DNA of 64,000 nt. It comes from a virus. Its lineage: Duplodnaviria > Caudoviricetes. The DNA lies in IMG/VR virus record IMGVR_UViG_3300011335_000826, positions 24,254-88,253 of that record; one strand, given 5' to 3'. The position numbers and the translations under genes were made by a program. Position 1 is the first letter of the stretch. The number at the start of each line of letters is the position of its first letter. Below, one piece after another: positions 23,638 to 44,830 of the stretch. The notes beneath the pieces are model-generated. The model made no database searches. It saw only the letters and a list, made by a program, of their open reading frames with translations, and was not told the origin of the DNA.

Positions 23638-24365
23638 CAACACCTGCATGGTTACCTGACAAAAGATATTATGAATATCTCAACCATAAGATACGCACCC
23701 CGGGCGTAGAATGGGACACTTGGCGTCCTTGGGATCAATGGACTTATCCAGATGAAGTGATTACATGGCTAAGTCATCTGATTGAAAAACAAATCCCCCA
23801 CATACAAAACCGCCGCGTTTTGGATGCTGGATGTGCTCAGGGCTTTGTGAGTCTGTTCTGTCTCCACAACAATGCCAGCTATGTGACTGGGCTGGATGTA
23901 AGAGATACCCCGCTGGAACTGGCCAGAGAAGTGACCCAGTTGGCCGGATATTCAAACTGCAACTTTAAGGTAGGGGACATCCAAGGTCCAGAATTTCGAA
24001 AGTTATGCGATGACCACGATACTGTGCTCATATCAGGAACACTGCAATATCTCACAGATCATTACTCTGTGCTACGCACCATTGCAGAATCCCGTGCCCA
24101 AACAGTTATACTGAATTCATGCACCTCGCCCATACATGCAGACTCCCAACCTGTGGTAGAATGGAGTTTGAAGCCCACCACACAGGTAGAAGAAGCAGAC
24201 TATAATCAACCATATCATCCAACACGCACTGAGCTATTTCTTGGCCAACCCAATCATACATGGACAGAACAGGCACTGCGCTCACTAGGATATAAAATCA
24301 CCTACAGTGAGATTTGGCAATACGGGCCTTGGATACACTATGTTCTAACAGGAACCAAATCATGA
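23634..24365 (+). CDS. Class I SAM-dependent methyltransferase
   Basis: VLDAGCAQG, VTGLD, FKVGDI, GTLQY. Confidence 0.85.
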   Translation: MTTPAWLPDKRYYEYLNHKIRTPGVEWDTWRPWDQWTYPDEVITWLSHLIEKQIPHIQNRRVLDAGCAQGFVSLFCLHNNASYVTGLDVRDTPLELAREVTQLAGYSNCNFKVGDIQGPEFRKLCDDHDTVLISGTLQYLTDHYSVLRTIAESRAQTVILNSCTSPIHADSQPVVEWSLKPTTQVEEADYNQPYHPTRTELFLGQPNHTWTEQALRSLGYKITYSEIWQYGPWIHYVLTGTKS

Positions 24366-29907: not shown

Positions 29908-30139
29908 AAATCTAATAGATCAGTTAGAGGCAACCAAAACCCGGGCCAGAGAGTTACGGATCACCCGCACAGATTTCGAACATTGGCAAAAACTTTACAC
30001 CTGGGATGCCATAAAGGGCATAGCATATGGAGAGAGTTTCTGCAAGTATTTTGAAATCTATGATGTGTTTTTGATGGTCATGAAGCATTGGGCCACAGCG
30101 GATCTAGAACTGTATATCCAGGAAGAGTATGTGGTCTGA
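29900..30139 (+). CDS. Hypothetical protein
   Basis: ORF track, overlaps both neighbours. Confidence 0.65.
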   Translation: MFKNLIDQLEATKTRARELRITRTDFEHWQKLYTWDAIKGIAYGESFCKYFEIYDVFLMVMKHWATADLELYIQEEYVV

Positions 30140-30368
30140 AGTGGTGTTTGAGGGTGCCGGACCGGCTCAGGGCATGGAGATGGCGTGGGCATTACGGGAT
30201 GCTGGATTGGTGCTAGACAAGGATTTTACTTGGTGCTACATTCCCAAGGCTGCGGATCCAGTTACCATAAACGAATGGTCACTGTTTGAAAAAAATGTAA
30301 GAAAAGTGATCATTGGATTCCAGGATCCTGCTATGGCAACCTTTTATAGCCTAAAGTGGCAGAGGTAG
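30129..30368 (+). CDS. F-x-L-[KR]-W family small protein
   Basis: Ends IGFQDPAMATFYSLKWQR. Confidence 0.75.
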   Translation: MWSEVVFEGAGPAQGMEMAWALRDAGLVLDKDFTWCYIPKAADPVTINEWSLFEKNVRKVIIGFQDPAMATFYSLKWQR

Positions 30369-30393: not shown

Positions 30394-30627
30394 ATGCAAG
30401 TTTTAGAAAATTATGTCATACGCGACAAGGAAAGTTTCAAACATTCACATGAACTCAGAAAAAAAACAGGTATCCTGGATCATGTGATCGAGTGGTGCAA
30501 AGACGAACTGGTAGGTGATTGGCGATGGCAACTGGTAGAGATGAGCAGCCATCAACAACCAGGTAGATATATTTTTTATTTTGACAGTGAACGAGATTAT
30601 TTCGCATTTTTATTGAAGTGGCAATAA
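30394..30627 (+). CDS. F-x-L-[KR]-W family small protein
   Basis: IEWCKDEL...YIFYFDSERDYFAFLLKWQ, junction ATTGAAGTGGCAATAATG. Confidence 0.8.
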   Translation: MQVLENYVIRDKESFKHSHELRKKTGILDHVIEWCKDELVGDWRWQLVEMSSHQQPGRYIFYFDSERDYFAFLLKWQ

Positions 30628-36739: not shown

Positions 36740-37302
36740 TCGATCCGGTGACTTTTGCTCCTCTTACATCGGAAGAGGTCAAGGTGGAGGACATGAAAAG
36801 CCGCATGCGAGGTCTTGCGTCGGCAGTGAAGAATCTCCAAGAGTATGATGAGTGGAACATGACCAGCAGGGAGTCTAGTGTGCCTTGGGGCCAACTCACT
36901 GCTGCCCAAAGTGCCACAGGTGGGATACATCAGGTAGGTCATATCGGCCTAAGCCCGAATGTGTATACCACCAACTCTCCTTATCAAAATCTGAACACCA
37001 TCACCGGCACTAGCATGAACAGCTTGATCGGCGGCAACGACTATAACATGAAGGTTGAACAATCCGGGCAGATTGATATCCGAGGCGAAAAGGCCGACAT
37101 CCGTATCAACGGCAAGAGCATGAACAAGTGGATGGAACAGGTGGAACAACGACTGAACATCCTGTCTCCCAATCCTGAACTGGAAAAGGAATGGGACGAT
37201 CTGCGCCGCCTGGGCGAACGCTATAGAAAACTGGAGAAGAAATGTCAAGAGAAAGCACAGATGTGGGCAGCATTGAAGAAGTTGCCCAAAGTAAAACCAT
37301 GA
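36736..37302 (+). CDS. Hypothetical protein
   Basis: ADI.INGKS...RL.IL.PNPELEKEW..L..LG..Y. Confidence 0.75.
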   Translation: MIDPVTFAPLTSEEVKVEDMKSRMRGLASAVKNLQEYDEWNMTSRESSVPWGQLTAAQSATGGIHQVGHIGLSPNVYTTNSPYQNLNTITGTSMNSLIGGNDYNMKVEQSGQIDIRGEKADIRINGKSMNKWMEQVEQRLNILSPNPELEKEWDDLRRLGERYRKLEKKCQEKAQMWAALKKLPKVKP

Positions 37303-38096
37303 CACCTAAACAACGCATCACTACCATTGTGAAGTGGATCAAGTCCTATGCCCGCAGTGCCAAAATCCGCACTTTGGTAGTGGGAATCTCAGGCGGCATT
37401 GATAGTTCGGTGGTGAGTGCTTTGTGTGCTAGAACTGGATTGAAAACCATCGTAGTGCAGATGCCCATCCGTCAAAACAAAACTCTGGACAATCGCAGTT
37501 CCATGCAGGCAGGTTGGTTACTGGAACGCCATCCAGACACAGTCACACACATGAGCATGGATTTGACTCCTGTATTTGCCGCGTTTGAAAAGAAAGTAGA
37601 TCCTTACTGCGGCATCGAAGATGATACCTACGGAACATACCAGTTAGCCAGTGCCAACAGTCGTGCTAGATTGCGTATGATGACCTTGTATCAGATTGCA
37701 CAATGCAACCGTGGTCTTGTGGTAGGCACAGGCAACCGGGTGGAAGACTTTGGTGTGGGCTTCTTTACCAAGTATGGTGATGGCGGTGTGGACATCAGTC
37801 CTATTGGTGACTGTATGAAAACTGATGTGTGGGATATGGGTCGCGAAATGGGGTTGCCACAAGAGATCATTGATGCTGCTCCCACTGATGGATTGTGGAC
37901 CGATGGCCGCACTGATGAAGATCAGTTGGGCATGACCTATCCCGAACTGGAACTGGCCATGGACCAGGACGAGAATTCGGATCTTTGGGATCCGACCTCT
38001 CCGCAGGAAAAGAAAAATCTTCGCCGATACCGTGAGATCCGCGCAACAAATCTGCATAAGATGTTGCCGATCCCGGTTTGCAAATTCGACTGGTGA
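37299..38096 (+). CDS. nadE: NH3-dependent NAD+ synthetase
   Basis: VVGISGGIDSSV, N.RARLRM, GTGNRVE, GFFTKYGDGGVD, PTDGLW, DEDQLG..Y. Confidence 0.95.
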   Translation: MTPKQRITTIVKWIKSYARSAKIRTLVVGISGGIDSSVVSALCARTGLKTIVVQMPIRQNKTLDNRSSMQAGWLLERHPDTVTHMSMDLTPVFAAFEKKVDPYCGIEDDTYGTYQLASANSRARLRMMTLYQIAQCNRGLVVGTGNRVEDFGVGFFTKYGDGGVDISPIGDCMKTDVWDMGREMGLPQEIIDAAPTDGLWTDGRTDEDQLGMTYPELELAMDQDENSDLWDPTSPQEKKNLRRYREIRATNLHKMLPIPVCKFDW

Positions 38097-38185
38097 GTGT
38101 ATAATACACATTGGATCGACCAAAACGATACTGTTTTGATTCGATATTCCGGGTGATTTTGCCCATTTCAGTAAGTAAAACTACC

Positions 38186-38758
38186 ATGAAAGCAAATCAA
38201 CTATCCTCTCTGGCACAACGCTACGGTTCATATCTGTTCAAGGCCCTTGGCCTGTTTGCAGTGATCTATGTGGTATGTGCTGTAACTTCTGCCCGATTCG
38301 AAACACTTCGTGAACAATCGGTTGGCCTACCTGAAGGCTACATCAGTGCTGCTCAACGCACTAAAGAACTGGATTGCCTTACACGCAATATCTACTGGGA
38401 AGCTGCAAACGAACCATTCGAAGGCAAAGTGGGCGTGGCACAGGTCACCATGAATCGCATGGAGTCTGGCAAGTTCGCTAGTTCTGTATGTGCAGTGGTG
38501 TATCAGAAAAATGTGTTCTACGAAAAAGTAGTATGCCAGTTCAGTTGGTTCTGTGAATCAGGACACACTGCCAAGACCATCCACAAGCCGCTGTGGAACG
38601 AAAGTGAAGAAGTGGCCAAGAAAGTGCTGTTGGAAGGATTCCGCTTGCCGGGATTGAAGAACGCACTTTACTACCATGCGGATTATGTAAATCCGGGTTG
38701 GAAAAAGCCCAAGTTAGAGAAAATCGGACATCACATATTTTATGGAGAAAACACATGA
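38186..38758 (+). CDS. Cell wall hydrolase, SleB/Hydrolase_2 family
   Basis: CL..NIYWEA..E...G..VAQV.MNR, CQFSW, ALYYHADYV.P.W, IGHHIFY. Confidence 0.92.
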   Translation: MKANQLSSLAQRYGSYLFKALGLFAVIYVVCAVTSARFETLREQSVGLPEGYISAAQRTKELDCLTRNIYWEAANEPFEGKVGVAQVTMNRMESGKFASSVCAVVYQKNVFYEKVVCQFSWFCESGHTAKTIHKPLWNESEEVAKKVLLEGFRLPGLKNALYYHADYVNPGWKKPKLEKIGHHIFYGENT

Positions 38759-39069
38759 CCTTTGAACCGCAAACCTGGCCAAAATCTGTACTCATTTGGC
38801 TGCAGGAACACCTGCCCAGACTCAGTGCAGAAACCCTGCAATGGATGGCCGCTCTGGTTCTACATGCTGCTACAGTTCCAACTTTGCTTGCCCTGATGAC
38901 TGGACTGAGTGATCGCACACCCAGTTTGGATATTGTGCTGTTCATGTGGGCTGGATTGGTGTTGCTGTTCATGCGGGCGGTGGTGCTCAAGGACATGTTG
39001 AACATCGTCACAGTGGGCACTGGATTCATTGTGCAAGCGGTGCTGATGGCCTTGATCCTGTTCAAATAG
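38755..39069 (+). CDS. Multi-pass membrane protein
   Basis: Three hydrophobic segments, ATGA-coupled. Confidence 0.7.
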   Translation: MTFEPQTWPKSVLIWLQEHLPRLSAETLQWMAALVLHAATVPTLLALMTGLSDRTPSLDIVLFMWAGLVLLFMRAVVLKDMLNIVTVGTGFIVQAVLMALILFK

Positions 39070-39072
39070 TCG

Positions 39073-39101
39073 TTGACCAGTATTTCGGGCTGTGCTATAA
39101 T
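39073..39101 (+). promoter_or_regulatory. Sigma70-type early promoter driving the paralogue array operon
   Basis: TTGACC-N17-TATAAT. Confidence 0.85.
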
Positions 39102-39121
39102 AAGCACATGATTACCTGGAG

Positions 39122-39520
39122 ATGTCTATGACCATGCACATGTGCGGCCCTGCGCTGAGCCTCAACGGCAAGAAAAAGGGCAAGTTCAAATATCGTAATG
39201 CTGCTGAAGCCAAGAAGGCTCGCGAGCTTGATGCCGACTGGAAAGAACTGCTCAAGCGTCAAGGTGTGGAGGCAGAAGCGAAGAAGCGTCGTCGTGCTCT
39301 AGCAGCAGAACCCTTGGTTTACAATTTAACTGGTGCTACAGATCGTGCAGGTACTGCTCACATTCCCAGTCTTGGCACAGGCGGAGGAGTTGCTGTGCTG
39401 GCGCCTGCCAAAGTGTATACAGGCACCAAAGTCAAGGGCATTGCCACCATGCACAAGAGCAATGCTGTGCCTGTGTTCAGCGACGAAGAAGCAATTGATA
39501 TTTCCAAGATGCGGCGATGA
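39122..39520 (+). CDS. Conserved phage hypothetical protein
   Basis: VYTG..VKGIATMHKSNAVPVF...A.DIS.MRR. Confidence 0.8.
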   Translation: MSMTMHMCGPALSLNGKKKGKFKYRNAAEAKKARELDADWKELLKRQGVEAEAKKRRRALAAEPLVYNLTGATDRAGTAHIPSLGTGGGVAVLAPAKVYTGTKVKGIATMHKSNAVPVFSDEEAIDISKMRR

Positions 39521-39813
39521 GCGATAGTGAATCGACCGTCAAATGGATATCTGAATTAGCAGAACGATGGATAACTGAACTCAACATGAAACGCATTGAA
39601 ACTGGCTATGCTGAGATTCAACCTCGATATCCTTATTGGGTTCAGCCAGTCAACTACTCTCGTAAGGAGTGGGATGAGATGGGGGATTGGGTAGTGAAAA
39701 CATTCGGCAACGGTGATTGGATGACCGAACATGGACTCTGGGTGGGCAGTGATCGTAAGTATTGGTTCCGCGATGAGCGAGATCGCACCTTGTTCATATT
39801 GAAGTGGTCATGA
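39517..39813 (+). CDS. F-x-L-[KR]-W family, array unit 1
   Basis: DWVVKTFG...YWFRDERDRTLFILKWS. Confidence 0.8.
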   Translation: MSDSESTVKWISELAERWITELNMKRIETGYAEIQPRYPYWVQPVNYSRKEWDEMGDWVVKTFGNGDWMTEHGLWVGSDRKYWFRDERDRTLFILKWS

Positions 39814-40043
39814 GTGTAGTTCTAATCCCCAGAGAGCGAAACAACGAAGCCTTTGTGGCCTGGTTGAAAGAGAACATCGGAGCCAGCAGTTCACGCCGGC
39901 AAGCCTATGTTCGCAAATACGGGTCAGGCTGGGATCTGACCACAGTAATGGTTCGGACCGCTCCCAAGACGGACCGAATATATTGGCAAGTGACCATTGA
40001 AGATGAACACATGGCCATGCTGTTTGCATTGAAGTGGTCATGA
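39810..40043 (+). CDS. F-x-L-[KR]-W family, array unit 2
   Basis: AWLKENIG...VTIEDEHMAMLFALKWS. Start at the ATGA overlap. Confidence 0.8.
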   Translation: MSVVLIPRERNNEAFVAWLKENIGASSSRRQAYVRKYGSGWDLTTVMVRTAPKTDRIYWQVTIEDEHMAMLFALKWS

Positions 40044-40330
40044 GCGGAACTCTTATCTCTCCGGCTGCCCTCACCAAAGAAGCGGTGGGCCTGCTCAACA
40101 AGGCGTTTAAAAAACACTACGGTCAGTTGAACTTTAAAATACGAGATCAATCTCAAGTGGATGGTGACACATGGTATACAGTATCATGCACCGGGGCAGT
40201 GGCCAAATGGATACGATCACAGGATCGAGAAATCTGGCACGAACACATCAATGGCAAATGGGATGTGATCCATAACACATTCGACATACACGAAAAACTC
40301 TATACTTTTTTGGCATTGAAGTGGTCATGA
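40040..40330 (+). CDS. F-x-L-[KR]-W family, array unit 3
   Basis: AKWIRSQ...FDIHEKLYTFLALKWS. Confidence 0.8.
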   Translation: MSGTLISPAALTKEAVGLLNKAFKKHYGQLNFKIRDQSQVDGDTWYTVSCTGAVAKWIRSQDREIWHEHINGKWDVIHNTFDIHEKLYTFLALKWS

Positions 40331-40548
40331 CAGAGAATCCTGTATTGATTGTTGATTACGGTCTCCGCAGAGTTCGGCTGACTTATAGCACCCCAGCGGC
40401 CCAGCCGCTTACACCCGGCCGTGAGTTGTGGGATCAAAGCCAATGGTGCGCGGAAACTTTTAAATCTGAAACCTGTGTTTATAACAACGGCCGGTGGTAT
40501 TTTAAACGACCACAGGACCTGACCATGTTCTTGATGAGGTGGTCATGA
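40327..40548 (+). CDS. F-x-L-[KR]-W family, array unit 4
   Basis: QWCAETF...WYFKRPQDLTMFLMRWS. Confidence 0.8.
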   Translation: MTENPVLIVDYGLRRVRLTYSTPAAQPLTPGRELWDQSQWCAETFKSETCVYNNGRWYFKRPQDLTMFLMRWS

Positions 40549-40739
40549 ACCCGGTCAACGGATGGTATGTGGTCAGCGTGATGGCACCTGGTGTTAGTCA
40601 AGGGTGGACACTTTGTTTTGATTGGTGCTTTGAACAATTCGGTAGCCATACCGTGGATGGTTGGGGGTATGTAGGCGAAGGTGTGTTCGAGTTCCGCGAG
40701 GAAAAACATGCTGCATGGTTCATGTTGAGGTGGCGATGA
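40545..40739 (+). CDS. F-x-L-[KR]-W family, array unit 5
   Basis: DWCFEQFG...FEFREEKHAAWFMLRWR. Confidence 0.8.
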   Translation: MNPVNGWYVVSVMAPGVSQGWTLCFDWCFEQFGSHTVDGWGYVGEGVFEFREEKHAAWFMLRWR

Positions 40740-41008
40740 ATTCAGCACAACGACGCAAAAACGATCGTGGTCTGGTAAAACTGGAGCACGAGATCATGGT
40801 TGATATTGACAGGGGCATTGATCTTCACAGGCACTATGCCGCCGAGGACTGGTGCATTGAACAATTTGGCAAACGGTGGACTGCCCTGGGCGATGCCACT
40901 GGTGCGCGGTGGGCATGTTTCTGGGCAGGTAGAAATGATCCTGCACGGTATAGATTTTGTTTCGCAGAGTCCAAGGACGCTGTGTTTTTTGCATTGAAAT
41001 GGCGATGA
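40736..41008 (+). CDS. F-x-L-[KR]-W family, array unit 6
   Basis: DWCIEQFG...FCFAESKDAVFFALKWR. Start at the ATGA overlap 40736. Confidence 0.8.
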   Translation: MNSAQRRKNDRGLVKLEHEIMVDIDRGIDLHRHYAAEDWCIEQFGKRWTALGDATGARWACFWAGRNDPARYRFCFAESKDAVFFALKWR

Positions 41009-41043
41009 AGAAAAAACGGTTACTAACTTTTAAAGGAGAATTT

Positions 41044-41457
41044 ATGGATACATTGGATTGGGAACAACAAGAAGTGTTCCGGCTGCTGAAAAATCAACCG
41101 GGCACACAATATCAAGAAGCCGACGAGGCAGGACGAAAACAGATGCGTGACTGGGTGCAGAACCTGCTGAGCAACAGCGAAGTCACTGTGCAGTTTGTGA
41201 AATCCGATGGCACTGTGCGCGACATGCGATGCACACTGGACCGCGGTAGAATCCCGCCTGCACCGCCCAAACCTGTGCCCACAGAGATCCAAGCCAGTTC
41301 TACTGTGAACATTGATGGGCTTACAGAAAGCAAGAACCCACGCAAAGAACCCGATCCGGTCACCCAGCGTGTGTATGATCTGGACCAGAATGCCTGGCGT
41401 AGTTTCCGTTATGATCGGCTACAGAAGATTACTGCGGAGATCAGTTTCGCTAAGTAA
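41044..41457 (+). CDS. WYL_2-like SH3/Sm-fold protein
   Basis: V.F.K.DGT.R.M.CTL...VYDLD..AWRSFR. SD AAGGAG. Confidence 0.7.
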
Positions 41458-41464
41458 TGCATCA

Positions 41465-41683
41465 ATGGCCAAAGAAGAAACTTTAGAATTAGAAGGCAAG
41501 GTGCTAGAAGTCTTGCCCAATACCATGTTCCGCATACAGTTGGATGGTGTAGAACGACCCGTGATCGGATACATCTCCGGCCGCATGCGTAAACATGATA
41601 TCAAAATCCTGTTAGGTGACCGTGTGCTGATCGAGTTTTCACCCTATGATCTCACCCGTGGGCGTATAACCCGCCGCCGCTAA
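41465..41683 (+). CDS. infA: Translation initiation factor IF-1
   Basis: [22 protein letters not shown]...[27 protein letters not shown]. Confidence 0.95.
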
Positions 41684-41691
41684 ATACTGAT

Positions 41692-42234
41692 ATGCGTGAA
41701 CATATCGATCTAATAGAAGCAACCACCCGTCCAACCAAGTTGGAAACCACTCCGCTGCCTTATTCACGAGATGAATTGGCCCCTGTGATGAGCGGTGATA
41801 CCATCGACTATCACTTTGAACACTTGGCCAAAGGTTACGCCAAACGCTACAATGCCGGCGAAGGTGATCCCGATTTTAACCGTGCTGGCAGTTTCTTGCA
41901 CAACAAATTCTTCCCACAACTACAACCACCCAAGGGCACAAATCGCCCCCGAGGTGCTGTGCTAGAACTCATAGAACGCAAATTTAAGAGTTACGAAGCA
42001 TTCCAGGATGCTGTAAAAGAAACAGCAATGAAGATCCAAGGATCAGGCTGGGTTTACTTGAGTACCGGCGGTGAGATTAAAACCATCAAGAATCATGCTG
42101 TGCGTACAGATATATGCGTACTTATTGACTGGTGGGAGCATGCCTGGGCCCTAGACTACCAGTGGGACAAAGAGAAATATCTCGACAACATCTGGCGCAT
42201 CATCAACTGGGATGTGTGCTCAGATAGACTATAA
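41692..42234 (+). CDS. Fe/Mn superoxide dismutase
   Basis: LPY..L.P..S..TI.YH..H..Y, H..FF, GSGW, DWWEHAW.LDY. Confidence 0.9.
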   Translation: MREHIDLIEATTRPTKLETTPLPYSRDELAPVMSGDTIDYHFEHLAKGYAKRYNAGEGDPDFNRAGSFLHNKFFPQLQPPKGTNRPRGAVLELIERKFKSYEAFQDAVKETAMKIQGSGWVYLSTGGEIKTIKNHAVRTDICVLIDWWEHAWALDYQWDKEKYLDNIWRIINWDVCSDRL

Positions 42235-42246
42235 ACGGACCACATT

Positions 42247-42567
42247 ATGAAACTAGAAACTGGAGCAGTTTCCAAACTGCGAGAACTCATTGCCGAAGAA
42301 GCCAACCCTGATCTCAAACTCAGAGTATTTGTGCAAGGTGGCGGGTGTTCCGGATTCAGTTACGGATTCACCTTTGATGAAGTTCAAAATGAAGATGATT
42401 TTGACTTCAATTATGAAGAAGTGCGTGTGATAGTAGATGCCATGAGCATGCAATATCTGCAAGATTCAACCATAGATTTCCGTGAAGATGTCATGGGATC
42501 CAGTTTTGTGATCAACAATCCCGCCGCAAAAACCACTTGCGGCTGCGGGTCCAGTTTCTCCGTTTAG
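42247..42567 (+). CDS. A-type Fe-S carrier protein (ErpA/IscA, HesB family)
   Basis: [17 protein letters not shown]...[13 protein letters not shown]. Confidence 0.93.
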
Positions 42568-42619
42568 CATAATCAAGTAGATAGGTTGCTCTGGTAAATA
42601 CACCAGAGAGCACCTACCT

Positions 42620-44830
42620 ATGACCCAAGAATATATAAATGTTGGCAGTTCACCTGACGATGGCACCGGAGATCCGTTGCGTACAGGTTTCATAAAAACC
42701 AACAACAACTTCAGCCAATTATTTTCTGCCATACTGGGCAATGTGTCATCATTGACCTATGGCAACACCAGTATAACCATTCCAGTTGCTAATGGCAATA
42801 TTGCTGTACAAGTAACAGGCACCAGCAATGTAGCAGTGTTTTCGCCCAATGGGCAATATGTGTCTGGTTTGATTTCGGCCACTGGTAACATTACCGGATC
42901 CTATTTGATTGGTAATGGTAGCCAGATCACAGGTATAGGCAATTCTACAGCCATCGTAAATGGCACATCCAATGTAAAAATGGTTGTGTCTGGCGGAAAT
43001 GTTACAATAGGTGTGGGCGGCACCACCGTTGGCACTTTTGCCACAACAGGTGAATATGTAACTGGATTGATTTCGGCTACCGGTAATATCAAAGCAGCAG
43101 GATTTACTTTTGCCAATGGTCAACCGGTTAGCACAGGTGCTCAAGGCGCAACAGGAACACAAGGCGCAACAGGAACACAAGGCGCTGTGGGCACACAAGG
43201 GTCTGTAGGTACACAAGGTATCCAGGGCACTGTTGGTGCTCAAGGAGAAACAGGCACACAGGGTGTGCAAGGTATACAAGGTGCTATCGCAGCACAAGGT
43301 ATCCAAGGTGAAATTGGCGCACAGGGCGAAACTGGTACACAGGGTATCACCGGCACACAAGGCATCCAAGGTATCACCGGCAGTCAAGGTACCATTGGAG
43401 TCAGCGACAAATATGCAACGACCAGCAGCACTAGCCTAACTATCGGTCTTGGTACTCAAAACCTGACGGTGGGTACAGGACTTTCATATTCAGTAGCCCA
43501 AGATGTAATCATTGCTTATGACATAAGCAATCACATGACTGGAATGATCGTATCATATGATTCCGGTACCGGTGCCATGGTAGTGAATGTGGACACCGTA
43601 ATTGGTTCCGGCACCTATGCTGCCTGGACAGTGAATTTAAACGGTGCCGTGGGTATCCAAGGCACAACCGGCGCACAGGGTATACAAGGCATTACTGGAA
43701 CACAAGGTATCACAGGAGCACAAGGTATTCAAGGCGTCCAAGGTAGACAAGGTATAACTGGTATACAAGGATTACAGGGTGTGTCTGGCGCTCAAGGCAT
43801 AACCGGAGCACAAGGTATCCAAGGTATCCAAGGTATCACCGGAGCACAAGGTGCAGTTGGCACACAGGGTGCAATAGGAACTCAAGGTACAATCGGAACC
43901 CAAGGCATCCAAGGTATCACAGGCGCACAAGGCGCAATCGGTACACAAGGTACCACTGGTACACAAGGGATCCAGGGCATTGTAGGAACTCAGGGCACAC
44001 AAGGTACTCAAGGTACAACTGGTATCCAGGGTATACAAGGTGTACAAGGCACCCAAGGCATCCAAGGTCCAATAGGTCCAAGCACTGCTATCAATGCCAC
44101 CAATGTTACCACAGGCACATTTTATCCTGTGATGGTGGGCGCTGCTGGTAGTGATCAGACTGCTAATATTGACACCCTGGGATTATCATTTACCGCTACA
44201 GGTAATATCTTCAGCACTACAGGTAATGTGGTGTCTAACAATGTGATCACCACTAACAGTCTCACAGGGGCATTAGTGTCAGTATCAGGCAATATCACTG
44301 CTGCCAACCTCATACTCAACGGGACAGCAGCAGCAGGCAGTGGTGTGTTGATCGTGAGTGGTAATATACAGACCAGTTCTGCCAATGCCACAGCAAACAT
44401 TGGCAATGCATCCAACTATTTTAACCGATTGTTTGCTCAAGCAACCACAGCACTTTACGCCGACTTGGCAGAGATGTACGAATCCGATGCAGATTATACA
44501 CCGGGCACTGTGGTAAGTTTTGGCGGTAGCAAAGAAGTCACTTTGACACAGATATCCAGCGATCAACGAGTGGCAGGAGTTATTAGTACCCATCCAGCAC
44601 ACACAATGAATTCGGGCATACAAGGTGAATTCACAGTGGCAGTGGCACTCACAGGTCGTGTACCTACTTCGGTTATCGGCACTGTGGCCAAAGGCGATAT
44701 GATGGTATCTGCTGGCAATGGCTACGCACAAGCCAGCGCCACTCCGGCTATGGGCACTGTGATCGGCAAGGCATTAGAAAACTTTGATGGCGAAAGTGGA
44801 ATCATTGAAATCGTCGTAGGAAGAATGTAA
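42620..44830 (+). CDS. Collagen-repeat tail fibre / virion protein
   Basis: N-terminal INVG..DDGTGDPLR.F.K.N.NF, two G-X-Y tracts, C-terminal YADLAE.Y.SD..Y.PGTVV...GRVP..V.G.V.KGD. Confidence 0.85.
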   Translation: MTQEYINVGSSPDDGTGDPLRTGFIKTNNNFSQLFSAILGNVSSLTYGNTSITIPVANGNIAVQVTGTSNVAVFSPNGQYVSGLISATGNITGSYLIGNGSQITGIGNSTAIVNGTSNVKMVVSGGNVTIGVGGTTVGTFATTGEYVTGLISATGNIKAAGFTFANGQPVSTGAQGATGTQGATGTQGAVGTQGSVGTQGIQGTVGAQGETGTQGVQGIQGAIAAQGIQGEIGAQGETGTQGITGTQGIQGITGSQGTIGVSDKYATTSSTSLTIGLGTQNLTVGTGLSYSVAQDVIIAYDISNHMTGMIVSYDSGTGAMVVNVDTVIGSGTYAAWTVNLNGAVGIQGTTGAQGIQGITGTQGITGAQGIQGVQGRQGITGIQGLQGVSGAQGITGAQGIQGIQGITGAQGAVGTQGAIGTQGTIGTQGIQGITGAQGAIGTQGTTGTQGIQGIVGTQGTQGTQGTTGIQGIQGVQGTQGIQGPIGPSTAINATNVTTGTFYPVMVGAAGSDQTANIDTLGLSFTATGNIFSTTGNVVSNNVITTNSLTGALVSVSGNITAANLILNGTAAAGSGVLIVSGNIQTSSANATANIGNASNYFNRLFAQATTALYADLAEMYESDADYTPGTVVSFGGSKEVTLTQISSDQRVAGVISTHPAHTMNSGIQGEFTVAVALTGRVPTSVIGTVAKGDMMVSAGNGYAQASATPAMGTVIGKALENFDGESGIIEIVVGRM
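43136..44080 (+). repeat. Pro-poor Gly-X-Y collagen tracts (43136-43399 and 43643-44080)
   Basis: GAQ/GTQ/GIQ/GIT triplets. DNA units such as GGCACACAA, GGTATCCAA. Confidence 0.9.

Follow-up and report, generated by a model that had tools for sequence, protein, structure and literature searches.

A candidate dual-coded junction between tandem small genes of an uncultured jumbo phage, with a probable role in translational coupling and a plausible one in unit exchange

How a row of small and strongly diverged phage genes comes to share nearly the same nucleotides at every gene end is the question raised by an array at positions 39517-41008 of a 64,000-nt stretch of viral DNA (the window; positions 24,254 to 88,253 of IMG/VR record IMGVR_UViG_3300011335_000826, Duplodnaviria; Caudoviricetes). 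The parent record is 88 kb long and, since CheckV puts its completeness at 26%, represents a jumbo phage fragment; the source is an uncultured freshwater jumbo phage. The array consists of six open reading frames (ORFs) of 98, 77, 96, 73, 64 and 90 aa, here called units 1 to 6, every one with its own stop and its own start, each start overlapping the preceding stop as ATGA and the next frame being offset by one base. An initial annotation had described six ORFs in ATGA-coupled tandem behind a sigma70 promoter at 39073; coordinates and overlaps were verified, and the promoter was recovered at the score given in Table 1. The best reading of the junction that joins the units is that of a dual-coded element, in which the end of a final helix, a Shine-Dalgarno (SD)-like site and a stop/start overlap would occupy the same nucleotides.

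The junction between units 1 and 2 comprises the last codons of the upstream unit, an SD-like GAAGTGG and the ATGA overlap, and the same element ends also at 40043, 40330, 40548, 40739 and 41008. The 16-nt identity noted in the initial annotation was found at three sites, copies of ATTGAAGTGGTCATGA ending at 39813, 40043 and 40330, and a relaxed pattern, TTGARRTGGNNATGA, occurs five times in the window, always within the array, against 0.02 occurrences expected. As also described there, the last codon is always TCA (four units) or CGA (two units), and an SD-like GAGGTG is present at two junctions, those ending at 40548 and 40739. Direct repeats in the array region consist of the junctions and short motif matches only.

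Codon choice at the unit ends points to a constraint on the nucleotides themselves. Among 81 distinct units in relatives, 78 end in NNA-TGA, the last residue being variously S, R, Q, A, L or G. Leucine at position -4 is encoded by TTG (49 units) or CTG (6) and by no other codon, G-ending codons making up 49% of leucine codon use genome-wide; arginine at -3 is encoded by AGG (36) or AGA (4) and never by CGN, which has a genome-wide share of 74%. In each of the six groups of orthologous units (orthogroups) tested, the last five codons show fewer synonymous differences than the rest of the gene, in line with the synonymous conservation of the junction that had been proposed as a check. In distant phages, ATGA-coupled units carry a G-ending leucine codon at -4 in 40 of 46 cases and an AGR arginine codon at -3 in 28 of 28, whereas units with no overlapping start do so in 3 of 14 (mostly TTA instead) and 6 of 11 (the other five being CGN); the bodies of the same genes give a background of 31% and 32%, respectively (coupled versus uncoupled, Fisher p = 9e-6 for leucine and 8e-4 for arginine). 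Since the codon bias vanishes in uncoupled units, the nucleotide constraint is tied to the presence of a downstream start. Amino-acid constraint alone, raised at the outset as a simpler account of the junction identity, does not fit this loss of codon restriction where no start overlaps, and the protein constraint by itself appears insufficient; judged from these alignments, the identity would stem mainly from the protein motif and from selection that favors an SD-like sequence and coupled translation.

Nine positions of GAGGUGGUC could pair with an assumed 3′ tail of 16S rRNA. With that tail, predicted duplex energies of the two GAGGTG junctions were -14.1 and -10.7 kcal/mol; the three GAAGTGG junctions gave -7.5 kcal/mol, the last junction -3.4 kcal/mol and random 16-mers -3.3 kcal/mol; the strongest SD-like site, at -14.1 kcal/mol, is the junction of unit 4, GAGGTGGTC. 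A role of the junction in coupling the translation of successive units is, on this evidence, highly probable.

In the explanation that we favor, the units would be expressed from an early, sigma70-driven operon, between the phrog_27048 gene and the genes for WYL_2, IF-1 (infA) and superoxide dismutase (SOD). As protein, the junction would close the C-terminal helix; as mRNA, it would present a purine-rich GA(A/G)GUGG about 5 nt 5′ of the ATG that follows, itself overlapping the stop as ATGA. With an SD-like site and ATGA at its end, each unit would carry a translation-initiation signal for whichever gene comes next, and this dual coding would, as the comparison suggests, keep the junction nucleotides constrained. 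Because all units share their final 11-18 nt or more, out-of-register recombination could remove, duplicate or insert whole units with frame and coupling intact; comparison of genomes suggests that the result would be the arrays of four to eight units in close relatives and the dozens of units per genome in larger phages. Taken as a whole, this explanation, in which a dual-coded junction serves both coupling and recombination, is probable, and the status of the six ORFs as real, separately translated genes is covered by that same joint estimate. What would set these units apart is an SD embedded in the family-defining C-terminal motif, and with it a portable initiation signal carried by each member.

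The array was compared with those of related phages by a metagenome scan, which yielded 17 closely related loci, 15 of them covering the array. Flanking genes in these loci (SleB-like, phrog_27048, WYL_2, infA and SOD) share 56-99% identity with their window counterparts. Clustering of all units gave 12 orthogroups, A to L, in which the window reads A B C D E F. Close relatives have between four and eight units in this slot: A G B H D E I F (L018), A B H D E F (L019), A B H D E I F (L020), A B D E F J (L021), A D E E' F (L022), A G D' E I F (L025), A D E F (L026 and L027), ..H K D E I F L (L028) and A B H D D' E F (L032). Unit order is collinear in all close relatives. The same unit types are found reordered in distant phages, as A-I-C-D in L048 and D-A-F-C in L055, and L051, which keeps the same flanking genes, reads A-a'-H-C-J. 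Unit number and order are therefore not fixed across relatives, and of the gain, loss and reordering foreseen in the initial annotation, the change in number is borne out in close relatives and the change in order in distant phages, but close relatives show no reordering.

The ATGA overlap was found in at least one locus for 21 of 22 distinct neighbor pairs, and only four joints are irregular. L024 has a 67-nt gap. Between D and E, L029 has a 59-aa ORF (L029:5634-5813) with a degenerate tail, L-R-C-L, and a GTGA overlap; at the D/E position of L022 there is a 157-nt non-coding gap (L022:5443-5600) that may be a decaying unit. Units had been described as hypervariable, which is contradicted by their orthologues. 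Per unit, orthologues are 55-93% identical (57-83% over 39 orthologue clusters for unit 6), and the ratio of nonsynonymous to synonymous substitution rates (dN/dS) within orthogroups is 0.28-0.50, so the divergence lies between old paralogues, each under purifying selection. Unit 3 has no orthologue in the arrays of the 15 close relatives; 66 clusters of homologues occur elsewhere, including in the arrays of other phages.

All unit-level differences between relatives have their boundaries at the junction. Direct repeats that flank variable units measure 18 nt for C, 18, 14 and 14 nt for I, 39 and 17 nt for the second E copy and 11 nt for L; those flanking the core units A, D, E and F measure 4-10 nt. 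The long repeats match through the otherwise free last codon. The two E copies of L022 share an identical 39-nt tail, the remainder of both genes differing at many positions, and the E-copy tails change together between L022 and L024, a co-variation that points to gene conversion near the junction. Between L019 and L025, nucleotide identity is 100% in E and 79% in the adjacent F, and such sharp changes from unit to unit suggest that exchange among co-circulating relatives is frequent. Of 29 ends of exact-match runs between loci, 15 are no more than 26 nt from a junction, where about 7 would be expected, although the ends are not mutually independent. Phage T4 amplifies and deletes segments at microhomologies of 6-10 bp (PMC9391042), so repeats of 11-18 nt or longer would in principle be sufficient substrates. 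Recombination between junction repeats is plausible as the cause of unit turnover, and the evidence leans toward a recombination role for the junction.

Several observations weigh against the explanation proposed here. Three of the six junctions pair just moderately better than their synonymous recodings (fraction 0.19-0.21), a strong average SD signal was not seen in the long ORFs of the phage, for which start calls were crude, and the pairing depends on the 16S tail assumed. Exact-match runs, whose ends would mark breakpoints of allelic exchange, also end inside units. Adjacent junctions do not, overall, have significantly longer repeats than non-adjacent ones (Mann-Whitney p = 0.14), the within-locus excess of tail similarity is small (15.21 versus 15.06 of 26 nt, permutation p ~0.045), and each orthogroup keeps its own junction variant. 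The collinear order in close relatives is, moreover, compatible with differential loss alone. An integrase-free accordion driven by junction recombination, as first put forward, stands in part: the joints do fall at ATGA and the longest repeats do flank the variable units, but the adjacency test lends it no support.

The junction might, then, have no role in recombination, its likeness from unit to unit being that of a protein tail plus ATGA, and its clean joints the product of ordinary illegitimate or allelic recombination followed by selection for intact coupled ORFs. Such a history would agree with the orthogroup-specific junction variants, stable across relatives, with the non-significant adjacency test, with run ends inside units and with the remnants and irregular joints (the gaps in L022 and L024 and the odd ORF in L029), but would fit less well with 21 of 22 neighbor pairs joined in identical register, with the longest repeats flanking variable units and matching through a free last codon, or with two E copies that have identical tails and otherwise differing genes; we consider it unlikely. 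Nor does contraction alone, from an ancestor with all 13-14 unit types in fixed order to present arrays that are deletion products without insertion or movement, seem anything but quite improbable: 15 of 15 close relatives, and L051 with the same flanking genes, can be placed on a single master order, A G B H K C D D' E E' I F J/L, but the distant arrays of L048 and L055 stand in other orders and contexts, the adjacent diverged duplicates D/D' and E/E' show that expansion also happens, and large phages hold 20-30 or more copies. Dedicated diversification by a diversity-generating retroelement or an integron-like recombinase, or else a single polyprotein, is hardly credible, for although the paralogues diverge strongly in their bodies (13-31% mean column identity) and one relative, P0069, is a two-domain fusion, the array region has no near-identical template and variable repeats, attC-like inverted repeats or intergenic sites, orthologues are conserved with dN/dS below 1, and each unit has its own stop and start with the next frame shifted by one base.

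Translational coupling at ATGA or TAATG overlaps, with an SD inside the upstream gene, is general operon biology. Like coupled operon genes, the units have a 4-nt overlap, an SD-like, purine-rich sequence that precedes the start by about 5 nt and a codon choice at the upstream gene end that is constrained by the downstream start; unlike ordinary coupled genes, they have the SD within a family-defining C-terminal motif, and the bias is gone when no gene follows. Integron cassettes are disfavored by the absence of attC-like repeats at the junctions, the sole inverted repeat being one 12-nt pair 381 nt apart, and targets of a diversity-generating retroelement by direct repeats confined to junctions and short motifs and by dN/dS below 1. 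No recombinase was seen among the genes adjoining the array, no search aimed at an integrase having been made.

Shuffling of small early phage genes without an integrase has its closest described counterpart in promoter-early stem-loop (PeSL) cassettes, through which modules are shuffled in the hyperplastic regions of T4-type phages; each PeSL is a promoter-terminator unit lying between genes, and mini-circles have been shown for PeSLs (PMC2839356, PMC4122927). The array resembles PeSLs in that short repeated regulatory sequences lie beside small, non-essential early genes and in the insertion, deletion and replacement of whole genes proposed to proceed without an integrase. Unlike PeSLs, it has no intergenic DNA (units overlap by 4 nt), a single promoter for all units and no terminators between them, and its repeat is made of coding sequence and ribosome-binding site. 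Microhomology also drives the segmental amplification of T4 dmd-tifA against toxIN (PMC9391042), and poxvirus 'genomic accordions' are referred to in the same paper (Elde et al. 2012, as cited in PMC9391042). As in both of these, the copy number of small early genes would shift via recombination at repeats of at least 6-10 bp, but both of those involve recent amplification of identical copies under acute selection, whereas the array consists of old diverged paralogues whose repeat is kept by selection acting on translation. Jumbo phages G and 121Q have tandem arrays of >30 similar genes (PMC5646251), a likeness in the expansion of jumbo genomes through tandem duplication of small genes. The array combines known kinds, namely coupled paralogue arrays and repeat-mediated modular shuffling.

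The units are members of a very large family of small proteins that has no name and is confined to phages. Units 2-6 are 20-26% identical to unit 1, and most units have in common a W-C-x3-F-G helix, a W strand, an F-x-F strand, an E-x-D-A turn and a final helix ending in F-x-L-[KR]-W. The latter motif lies 0-2 residues from the stop in all six units and in 78 of the 81 distinct units in relatives. A W-x4-[FI]-G centre reported earlier for most units is indeed shared by most, and is lacking in unit 3. The six units score at E 4e-8 to 7e-23, unit 3, which also lacks the W-C-x3-F-G helix motif, being the weakest, with a profile (A2) built from an alignment that includes the six units themselves. 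A profile of 84 members matched 4081 representatives of 50%-identity clusters at E<=1e-3; the family domain is C-terminal among the matches listed, and members, where named, are called 'hypothetical protein' (ESM Atlas clusters, cluster names) and come from viral taxa. At least 32 copies are present, in two arrays, in a complete 364-kb phage with terminal repeats (G002), 21 on a 214-kb contig and 9-10 on the present 88-kb contig. The metagenome protein P0069 (141 aa) has two full LRW-tail domains fused, as if a junction stop had been lost.

The initial annotation recognised no described function for the family, which is indeed uncharacterised: searches of the six units by sequence profile in Pfam, PHROG, NCBIfam and PDB gave no match above threshold, structure matches in BFVD were to uncharacterised phage proteins only, and a literature search for a description of the family or its junction found nothing relevant. 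AlphaFold (AF2) predicts beta-alpha-beta-beta-alpha for unit 6 and an alpha-beta-beta-alpha C-terminal core with a hairpin for unit 3 (pLDDT 75.5 in each case). Compared by the order of their secondary structures, the two models have the same alpha-beta-beta-alpha C-terminal core, which agrees with the common fold that was anticipated, and the family fold is predicted to be small alpha/beta; conserved positions are mostly hydrophobic, as expected of a fold core, a point to set beside the initial suggestion that the fixed C-terminal helix could be a shared docking element. Foldseek and VIA-align returned for the two models generic alpha/beta plaits (EF-G domains, ACT, designed ferredoxins; Z<=6.3) or nothing (Z<=4.5).

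The promoter at 39073 is the top-scoring site within 37000-43000 and the sole strong promoter for the array, and no terminator-like sites were seen at the unit junctions (Table 1). ATGA coupling also joins the phrog_27048 gene, which is kept in relatives at 56-92% identity, to unit 1, so that the chain begins before the array. At the other end, WYL_2 has two candidate starts, the ATGA-coupled ATG at 41005 and an ATG at 41044 behind AAGGAG. Since the peptide encoded from 41005, an N-terminal extension of WYL_2, is conserved as protein in relatives, the coupled chain probably runs on into WYL_2 from this ATG, and then to infA and SOD. The downstream part of the operon (41005-42567), beginning with WYL_2, holds host-like genes, those for IF-1 and SOD being 64-99% identical across relatives.

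Table 1. Positions in the window of the promoter, the array and its neighbors, and dispersed members of the unit family
Feature	Position	Strand	Remarks
Dispersed family members (two)	30129-30368 and 30394-30627	+	family matches
sigma70-type promoter	39073-39101	+	TTGACC, 17-nt spacer, TATAAT, TG extension; 11/12 matches
phrog_27048 gene	39122-39520	+	first operon gene; 132 aa; PHROG match; stop overlaps unit 1 start (CGATGA)
Unit 1 (orthogroup A)	39517-39813	+	98 aa; C-terminus LKWS; orthologues in 10 related contigs
Junction 1/2	39796-39813	+	last unit codons, SD-like GAAGTGG, ATGA stop/start overlap
Unit 2 (orthogroup B)	39810-40043	+	77 aa; C-terminus LKWS; missing from the array in several relatives
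Unit 3 (orthogroup C)	40040-40330	+	96 aa; C-terminus LKWS; flanked by identical 18-nt junction repeat
Unit 4 (orthogroup D)	40327-40548	+	73 aa; C-terminus MRWS; junction GAGGTGGTC
Unit 5 (orthogroup E)	40545-40739	+	64 aa; minimal unit; C-terminus LRWR
Unit 6 (orthogroup F)	40736-41008	+	90 aa; C-terminus LKWR; basic N-terminus; most widely conserved unit type
WYL_2 gene (Sm-like SH3)	41005-41457	+	3′ of the array; PF10902, E 1.4e-10
IF-1 (infA) homologue	41465-41683		
Fe/Mn superoxide dismutase-like gene	41692-42234		
IscA/ErpA-like gene	42247-42567		

The likeness of units 2 and 3 reaches about 15 nt beyond the junction (39810-39827 versus 40040-40057), both units starting M-S-x-x-L-I, and the direct repeat around unit 2 is thereby lengthened to 78% identity over 37 nt. 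No significant match was found between the N-termini of the six units and other genes of the 88-kb contig. A blastn search of the region against 50,697 phage records gave a single match, in which 78 nt of the phrog_27048 gene (39415-39492) are 82% identical to gene 114, a hypothetical gene, of the cultured Delftia phage PhiW-14; a tblastn search of the same records with unit 5 gave none, and no RNA family was found by Rfam on 38500-42000.

Since the units are expressed from a host-type promoter, they are probably early. As a working guess, we would see them as early-expressed proteins that bind targets in the host or the phage, their N-termini and loops varying on a common scaffold. Their small size, their numbers, their variable count and the single scaffold with variable N-termini suggest, more tentatively, a possible role as accessory host-interaction or counter-defence proteins.

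Among distant relatives is a subfamily whose N-terminal segment, about 45 residues long, matches the start of Gp23 (PF07068 positions 1-56, above the gathering score). Two such fragments, one of them encoded by G002 itself, were compared with the G002 major capsid protein and are 42-52% identical to its residues 54-99 (E 1e-11 to 1e-13). Members with the segment are L013:6376-6759 (equal to G002:C1, in the array at ~200-205 kb), L059:1471-1845, P0125 and P0179; G002 has two such small ORFs in addition to its genuine capsid gene, and none of the six window units has the segment. In T4, the Lit abortive-infection protease senses the Gol peptide. According to a T4 review (PMC3014915), the Gol region falls within the first quarter of gp23 and is the most conserved part of that protein. 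It is a long shot that the LRW scaffold would be the display platform of an early counter-defence arsenal, with the capsid-fragment members as decoys or blockers of host sensors and the junction retained for expression-safe swapping. Many longer relatives (such as P0252, P0098, P0158, P0061, P0109 and L001:4107-4565), distant unit 3 homologues among them, have 'Y-Q ... A-G-R-Q-T-G-K-S' N-termini. Assignment of these to the adenine-binding/Walker A segment of the G002 large terminase was rejected as not significant (blastp E 0.2-0.8); the terminase-like hidden Markov model match of the N-terminus had E 0.42, though it was the top of 271 ORFs.

If the explanation proposed here is true, one short sequence would form the C-terminus of a protein, supply the following gene with its ribosome-binding site and start codon, and offer the homology for whole-gene exchange. 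This would account for how giant phages can assemble and reshape long rows of small accessory genes with neither integrases nor intergenic signals. The comparison of codon use between coupled and uncoupled units offers a simple way to part protein from RNA constraint at other overlapping gene ends. The family itself, with several thousand clusters and dozens of copies in some genomes, and with neither a name nor a solved structure, is a target for screens of early phage-host interactions.

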